DNA from: a virus | Taxonomy: Duplodnaviria; Heunggongvirae; Uroviricota; Caudoviricetes | Length of the DNA: 19,638 nt | Direction: 5' to 3' (one strand) | IMG/VR virus record: IMGVR_UViG_2778261223_000002 | In this document: in pieces, positions 19,404 to 19,638 of the stretch | How positions within the stretch are numbered: position 1 is the stretch's first letter | How the letters are laid out: each line of letters opens with the position of its first letter | Notes under the pieces: model-generated | Databases searched by the model: none | The model's input: the letters and a program-made list of their open reading frames with translations, nothing else | What the model was told of the DNA's origin: nothing | Position numbers and translations under genes: made by a program

Positions 19404-19589
19404 ATGCAGGATATTCCACAGGAAACACATCATGAGACGACACGCCTCACTCAGTCAGCCCAGGTGGTGCTCTGGGAAATCGATCTGACAGAGGTCGGTG
19501 GTGAACGTTATTTTTTCTGTAATGAGCAGAACGAAAAAGGTGAGCCGGTTACCTGGCAGGGTGAACTGCACCCCAAATGTTGGACATAA
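19404..19589 (+). pseudogene. L: Minor tail protein L, truncated after about 53 codons
   Basis: N-terminus MQDI.QET ... VVLWEIDLTEVGGERYFFCNEQNEKGEPVTWQG matches the lambda gpL N-terminus, then diverges (ELHPKCWT-stop); full-length gpL is about 230 aa. Confidence 0.6.
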
Positions 19590-19638
19590 TCTGACATCTG
19601 AAGGTGCAGTTTATGAAACATTCATTTGAAGTAAAACT
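19562..19638 (+). mobile_element. Possible IS3-family insertion sequence left end (partial, runs off the window)
   Basis: Sequence TGAACTGCACCCCAAATGTTGGACA begins exactly where gpL similarity ends and resembles IS3-family terminal inverted repeats; a new ORF (MKHSFEVK...) starts at 19613 with an AGGTG RBS. Confidence 0.3.

Follow-up and report, generated by a model that had tools for sequence, protein, structure and literature searches.

IS1397 in tail gene L of a lambdoid prophage: a probable tail defect and a possibly recurrent target site

Disruption of prophage genes by insertion sequences (ISs) is common in Escherichia coli, and O157 Sakai is said to harbor a 'defective prophage pool'. 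The closest described cases are IS-disrupted lambdoid prophages, such as those with IS629 in O157, in which an IS3-family element lies in a structural gene and an otherwise complete prophage is defective. The case described here involves a known element and is a known kind of event. It departs from the IS629 cases in that another IS, highly target-specific, is involved, L is the interrupted gene, and the late operon is otherwise free of lesions. The L-defective (amber) mutants of phage lambda offer a second comparison, since they too have lost gpL, the tail-tip hub protein; they carry a point mutation, whereas the lesion described here is an insertion, which may be polar on K, I, and J. Lambda L is essential for tail assembly, and L mutants form heads and no functional tails. 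The last tail ring is built by gpL together with gpJ; the HDI hub domain of gpL comprises residues 1-166 and the Fe-S domain residues 154-232 (PMC10721106). IS1397 is described as inserting specifically into REP/palindromic-unit (PU) sequences (PMC1525189). Its usual targets are the centres of extragenic PUs in BIMEs, for which it is regarded as strictly specific. The copy described here agrees with the known element in nucleotide identity, inverted repeats, orfA/orfB order, A AAA AAG site, and 3-4 bp duplication; it differs in that it lies within a protein-coding phage gene, at a site that is only weakly PU-like. The explanation that we favor, with high confidence, is a simple sense-orientation insertion of IS1397 at codon 53 of L in the late operon of a lambdoid prophage, an account that covers the mechanism, the tail defect, and the target choice.

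The DNA analyzed, hereafter the window, is a stretch of 19,638 nucleotides from a virus record (IMGVR_UViG_2778261223_000002). Near its end lies an intact gene M (109 aa, tail-tip; 19065..19394, + strand), which has a full-length Pfam Phage_min_tail match (1e-39) and is labeled 'phage tail protein' in the annotation of matching genomes. Immediately downstream of gene M is a 5' fragment of L, the lambda-type gene for the tail-tip hub, a minor tail protein (nt 1-158 of 699; 19404..19561, + strand). The fragment agrees at every position with the first 158 nt of the 699-nt intact L of E2348/69, and intact L genes in many other genomes show the same 100% identity. Residues 29-54 of the fragment match Pfam Phage_tail_L (PF05100; E = 5e-08, 32.9 bits, cut-off 25). 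Window 19000-19638 was compared by megablast with 5,426 complete E. coli genomes. It showed 100% identity to H (tape-measure)/M/L regions with an intact L, and every alignment to an intact L stopped at query base 562, which is window 19561. A junction-spanning match was found in 0 of the 5,426 complete genomes, in which the best coverage of window 19000-19638 was 88%. Sequence identity to L ends between 19561 and 19562, in agreement with the original prediction that similarity to gpL breaks off after about 53 codons near 19562. Codon 53 is GGT at the junction versus GGG in intact L and encodes Gly both ways. The L frame reaches a TAA stop at 19587-19589, inside the IS. The resulting chimeric 61-aa ORF (19404..19589, + strand) consists of L residues 1-53 and eight IS-encoded residues (ELHPKCWT), and its product has been deposited as STE03279.1, 'minor tail protein'.

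The sequence that follows the break is the left end of IS1397, of which the first 77 of 1,432 nt are present before the window ends (19562..19638, + strand). All 77 nt are identical (77/77, E = 1e-31) to annotated IS1397 in 1,720 genomes, and the matching annotation text is 'IS3-like element IS1397 family transposase'. The terminus starting with TG at 19562, noticed earlier from the letters alone, is thus the IS1397 left end. Its 25-bp left terminal inverted repeat (IRL), TGAACTGCACCCCAAATGTTGGACA, lies at 19562..19586 (+ strand); it occurs once in the window and had 0 matches in 200 shuffles. The new ORF beginning MKHSFEVK, with a ribosome-binding site, that had been noted about 50 nt further on is the start of IS1397 orfA (19613..19638, + strand). 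Its ATG at 19613 stands 51 nt past the IS start and is preceded by AAGGTG, and the window holds the first 8 codons of a gene that encodes 173 aa in the full copy. The coordinates and sequence statements made before any search were all correct, and the break had been placed exactly to the base. Among 50,697 deposited phage genomes, 0 contained IS1397.

Relatives with the identical 61-aa product were retrieved by an exact-sequence look-up, which gave five contigs from independent samples. The most informative comparison is with a 3.43-Mb contig of an E. coli assembly (GCA_900448395.1, UFZA01000001.1; hereafter L003), which matches window 9404-19638 with 0 mismatches over 10,235 nt. A complete IS1397 of 1,432 bp occupies L003 10159-11590. 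Its two ends, IRL and IRR (reverse complement, TGAACTGAACCCCAAAACCTGGACA), match at 21 of 25 positions and have the TG...CA form. Intact L reads CAGGGGCGG, but L003 reads CAGGG[IS]GGGGCGG; hence GGG has been duplicated, and the left copy of this 3-bp target-site duplication is at window 19559..19561. Beyond the IS, L003 contains L from nt 159 to its normal stop (the remaining 541 nt), followed by K (247 aa), I (182 aa), J (1,159 aa), lom, and the long side-tail-fibre gene stf; the gene order around the element is H-M-L'-[IS]-'L-K-I-J. The original prediction had named four things to look for downstream, and this assembly has them all: a transposase, the corresponding inverted repeat at the right end, the target-site duplication, and the rest of L. 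The proposal of an IS3-family element disrupting L therefore holds, with the element being IS1397 and the insertion in L003 being clean. The right junction of a simple insertion would run ...GGGGTTCAGTTCA, then GGG, then GCGGCAGTATCAGG. Because the window stops 77 nt into the IS, we infer the right junction of the window's own genome from the matching assembly L003, and it would be the same.

Across its full 1,432 nt, the L003 copy of the element matches annotated IS1397 copies in three complete genomes at 100% identity, and many further copies at 99.9%; the name IS1397 follows the RefSeq (NCBI PGAP) labels. The ORF layout of the IS3 family is present, with orfA at IS 52-573 (173 aa), an orfB whose -1 frame stays open as far as 1400, and a slippery heptamer, A AAA AAG, in frame at IS 525-531. 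An identical copy carries the RefSeq label 'programmed frameshift'. The reconstructed OrfAB has 449 aa and passes the NCBIfam IS3 equivalog model (NF033516, 387.2 bits, cut-off 160, profile positions 1-369/369); its Pfam matches are rve, rve_2, rve_3, HTH_28, and HTH_21. The inverted repeats and the length of 1,432 bp in L003 agree with those of the IS3 family (TG...CA, about 1.2-1.55 kb). The GGG duplication agrees with the family's 3-4 bp, and other IS1397 copies have the duplications TGGC, TTGA, AAA, and GTT. Given its OrfAB, frameshift site, IS3 model score, and HTH and rve domains, the L003 copy looks fully functional. In the mechanism that we propose, OrfAB made by programmed frameshifting would have brought in a copy of IS1397 from another chromosomal site; transfer would have followed the copy-out/paste-in pathway of IS3 elements, with a 3-bp stagger between the cuts.

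Two details were noted at the right end of the element in L003. The IS-terminal CA and the first duplicated G rebuild the CAG (Gln52) codon of L, and the L remainder downstream is in frame with the orfB stop TAA (L003 11556-11600, outside the window). With 13 sense codons from the orfB stop to the resumed L, stop read-through would yield an OrfAB-'L fusion, which is probably meaningless.

The site in L was compared with other sites occupied by IS1397, sampled as 3 loci from a species-representative scan and eight complete-genome copies, six of the latter at ygcP/ygcQ. All other independent IS1397 copies examined (7/7) sit in PU centres, with GCCKGATGCG... to the left and ...TTATCMGGCCTAC to the right of the IS and with duplications of 3-4 bp. 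These PU-sited copies lie between convergent genes, e.g., mutT/yacG, ysaA/avtA, ygcP/ygcQ, and yihN/ompL. The L target, which is in coding sequence, consists of a left half, GCCGGTTACCTGGCAGGG (19544..19561, + strand), and a right half, GCGGCAGTATCAGGCATAC, which lies beyond the IS and outside the window. GCCGG starts 18 nt to the left of the IS at the L site (17-19 nt in real PUs), and TATCAGGC starts 10 nt to the right (7-11 nt in real PUs). Against two PU half-site consensi, the L site scored 21/30, below the 27-30 of genuine PUs and equal to the maximum usually reached by shuffled 28-kb sequences. Of the roughly 56,000 positions in the 28-kb unoccupied prophage, as reconstructed, the site is tied for second (rank 2-3). 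In a stricter test anchored on the insertion point, 21/40 positions of the site agreed with the Z2-type PU target of Nissle (p = 0.003); between two genuine Z2 targets, 22/40 positions agree. DNA folding found no significant hairpin at the L target (z = -1.25), and by this measure the L target as a true PU-like palindrome was unsupported.

The same region was also inspected in lambda. At the target, lambda L (nt 131-185) reads GTATCAGCCGTATCC, versus GTATCAGGCATACCC in the intact allele here, and the lambda version of the 37-bp L site is GCCGGTCACC...TATCAGCCGTAT. The PU right arm is matched at 10/17 positions in lambda versus 13/17 in the intact allele here. Lambda thus matches the PU right arm less well, and the PU-like site is specific to the present L allele group. 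PU mimicry is a reasonable, though unproven, explanation of why a PU-specific IS landed in L. A weak PU mimic in a phage gene would be a natural, minimal, non-palindromic substrate with which to ask what the IS1397 transposase recognizes.

IS1397 was also seen in two short contigs of assemblies labeled as non-enterobacterial. One, JABUTA010000344.1 ('MAG: Parasporobacterium sp.', 1,569 bp), contains the full 1,432-bp element flanked by GCCGGATGCGGCG...CGCCTTATCCGGCCTAC. In this contig, as in the other, NZ_CACSKB010000521.1 ('Microbacterium sp. 18062', 415 bp), the element is in a typical E. coli palindromic unit. Both look like E. coli contamination.

The same junction, in the same orientation, was found on three flank haplotypes, one represented by the window, L003, and a further contig (L004), and the others by contigs L005 and L006. 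The latter two are short-read (Logan) contigs that end 29-30 nt into the IS and show the left junction only. Compared with the window, L005 has 145 differences in 10.2 kb and L006 has 107 in 5.7 kb, and the flanks differ by 1.4-1.9%. At least six complete genomes carry uninterrupted prophages that match the 2-kb flank of L006 at 100% identity. The flank of L005 is 99.9% identical to another uninterrupted prophage, distinct from those matching the window and L006. As two diverged haplotypes each have their own uninterrupted 'parent', these comparisons suggest independent insertions at a secondary hot spot in at least two haplotypes. Reuse of a site would be expected behavior, because all 7 other IS1397 copies are target-specific. 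In the proposed mechanism, the L site would be a weak mimic of a Z2-type PU with the same geometry, and would have been struck independently in at least two haplotypes. The combined claim, that IS1397 recognizes a PU mimic, GCCGGTTAC-N15-GTATCAGGCATAC, in L and has hit the same nucleotide independently across prophage lineages, is put forward tentatively, as a serious possibility. If true, it would represent a recurrent, sequence-programmed route of tail inactivation (domestication) for lambdoid prophages.

A single ancestral insertion could also underlie the three haplotypes. The flanks would then have been exchanged by later prophage recombination, there would be no hot spot, and the PU resemblance would be coincidental. 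A single origin would agree with the pronounced mosaicism of lambdoid prophages, with the overall rarity of the allele, and with a PU score no higher than the top score reached by chance in 28 kb. The same holds for L005, which differs from the window at 5 sites in the last 1.7 kb, the nearest 356 nt from the junction. L006 argues the other way: it differs at at least 15 sites in the last 2 kb, the nearest at window 19550, 11 nt from the junction, and its divergence does not drop toward the IS. For all haplotypes to descend from one insertion, a crossover no more than 11 nt from the IS would be required; two independent hits on the same nucleotide are more parsimonious and are the outcome expected of a sequence-directed transposase. 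The perfect 2-kb match of L006 to uninterrupted prophages and the target specificity of the other copies (7/7) point in the same direction. We consider a single origin rather unlikely. Any hot spot must be weak, because the junction is absent from the 5,426 complete genomes despite about 1,700 of them having IS1397 and about 1,770 having the present L type. The junction allele had no match in IMG/VR, searched with both junctions, or in JGI metagenomes, searched with the left junction.

Far less probable is a reading in which, in the window's own genome, the IS borders a deletion or inversion that it mediated, or lies at a recombination junction, and is no longer followed by the L remainder and the distal tail genes. 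The window itself would allow this, as it shows the left junction only and ends within the IS, and IS-IS recombination could occur because IS1397 is multi-copy in many strains (median 2 and maximum 40 copies per carrying genome). Against it stands L003, in which DNA without a mismatch to the window over 10,235 nt is followed by a clean insertion, a 3-bp duplication, and the L remainder. In the other draft contigs with the junction, 29, 30, or 127 nt of the IS are present before the contig stops, compared with 77 nt in the window, as for assembly breaks at a repeat; such lengths would be typical of k-mer overlaps at a collapsed multi-copy repeat. A recombination junction with unrelated DNA, which had been raised as the alternative to an insertion, was rejected on the same grounds, in that the sequence is IS1397 and both the L remainder and the duplication are found in L003.

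It is very improbable that misassembly at a contig end created a chimeric junction with no real DNA molecule behind it. The junction does lie 77 nt from the end of the window, and short-read assemblies misjoin at repeats; yet an identical junction is present in five contigs from independent samples, and a 3.4-Mb contig crosses the whole IS with its target duplication. The notion that L is in fact uninterrupted, as a divergent complete L in another frame (also foreseen earlier) or past a short insertion, can be dismissed, because the sequence past 19561 is 100% IS1397, the L frame hits the TAA at 19587-19589 and resumes in L003 only 1,432 nt on, and the orfB TAA stands 13 codons before the resumed L codons with no start codon between.

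The intact L allele encodes 232 aa and is 100% identical to L of phage cdtI. Compared with lambda, its identity is 90.6% at the nucleotide level to L (lambda 13429-14127) and 93% at the amino acid level to gpL. The four Fe-S cysteines (Cys173/182/205/212) are conserved relative to lambda gpL and are encoded only past the IS. A product that ends at L residue 53 plus 8 foreign residues has neither the complete HDI domain nor the 4-Cys Fe-S domain. The C-terminal part of L is without the first third of the hub domain, and in L003 no start codon separates it from the orfB TAA 13 codons upstream; the gene caller found only an internal 146-aa ORF in the L remainder. Because L is split after codon 53, a functional tail-tip hub protein should not be made. 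According to the proposed mechanism, L would be reduced to a 53-residue N-terminal stub with 8 junk residues, the tail tip would be incomplete without gpL, and induction would give DNA-filled heads lacking functional tails. Judged by lambda genetics and the tail structure, the prophage alone is almost certainly unable to build tails and probably unable to form infectious particles.

The insertion may also have a polar effect on the expression of K, I, and J. L supplied in trans by another lambdoid prophage could rescue the defect; such complementation is possible because genomes having any M-L match contain a median of 2 M-L regions. For annotation, L at this locus is a pseudogene interrupted by IS1397, and not a 61-aa 'minor tail protein' (STE03279.1). 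The prophage should be scored as probably not self-sufficient for infectious particles, which affects estimates of inducible phage and of cargo mobility. Members of the L cluster with 60 and 63 aa were considered as further truncation alleles and turned out to be contig-end partials of normal L.

Upstream of the tail-tip genes, the window contains rusA, Q, an AraC-type regulator, three tRNAs, holins, and an M15 endolysin, followed by the terminase subunits, portal, a ClpP-protease/capsid fusion, a decoration protein, and the tail genes Z, U, V, G, T, H, and M. All other late genes have the lengths seen in uninterrupted relatives. The 2-kb left flank in the window is 100% identical to an uninterrupted prophage in E. 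coli ETEC1738, which looks like the 'before insertion' state. The original prediction had left a choice between a cryptic prophage and a recent inactivation. The second part stands: a recent inactivation fits better than an old, decaying remnant, since the late genes are full length, the IS copy and the flank are each 100% identical to sequences elsewhere, and the duplication is perfect. In ETEC1738 (NZ_CP122768.1), the uninterrupted L segment is at 4792937-4794936, and IS1397 copies that are 100% identical to the L003 copy are also present (233658-235089).

Several other observations were made on the rest of the window. An AraC-family HTH regulator of 237 aa (1608-2321, + strand) lies just downstream of the antiterminator gene Q and is followed by a tRNA cluster, Met-CAT, Thr-TGT, and Gly-TCC (2348-2658, + strand); together, the regulator gene and the tRNAs are a cargo ('moron') region. 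Identical copies of this AraC-family regulator occur across 834 index blocks of the collection, in many prophages that differ in their mosaic make-up. At 3303-3384 (+ strand), ARAGORN called an 82-nt 'tRNA-Val (AAC)' with the anticodon at position 31, which is below threshold for Rfam tRNA and is probably a false positive or a degenerate tRNA. Between the endolysin gene and the small terminase gene, where related prophages differ in content, there is a 197-aa ORF on the opposite strand (5530-6123, - strand) with a weak match to the histidine-phosphatase family His_Phos_1 (22.8 bits; the cut-off is 21.7). One fusion ORF of 675 aa (10604-12823, + strand) combines a ClpP-like head protease with the major capsid protein. 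In L004, this fusion ORF is called as two (174 + 500 aa), with a single-base difference at window 11319.
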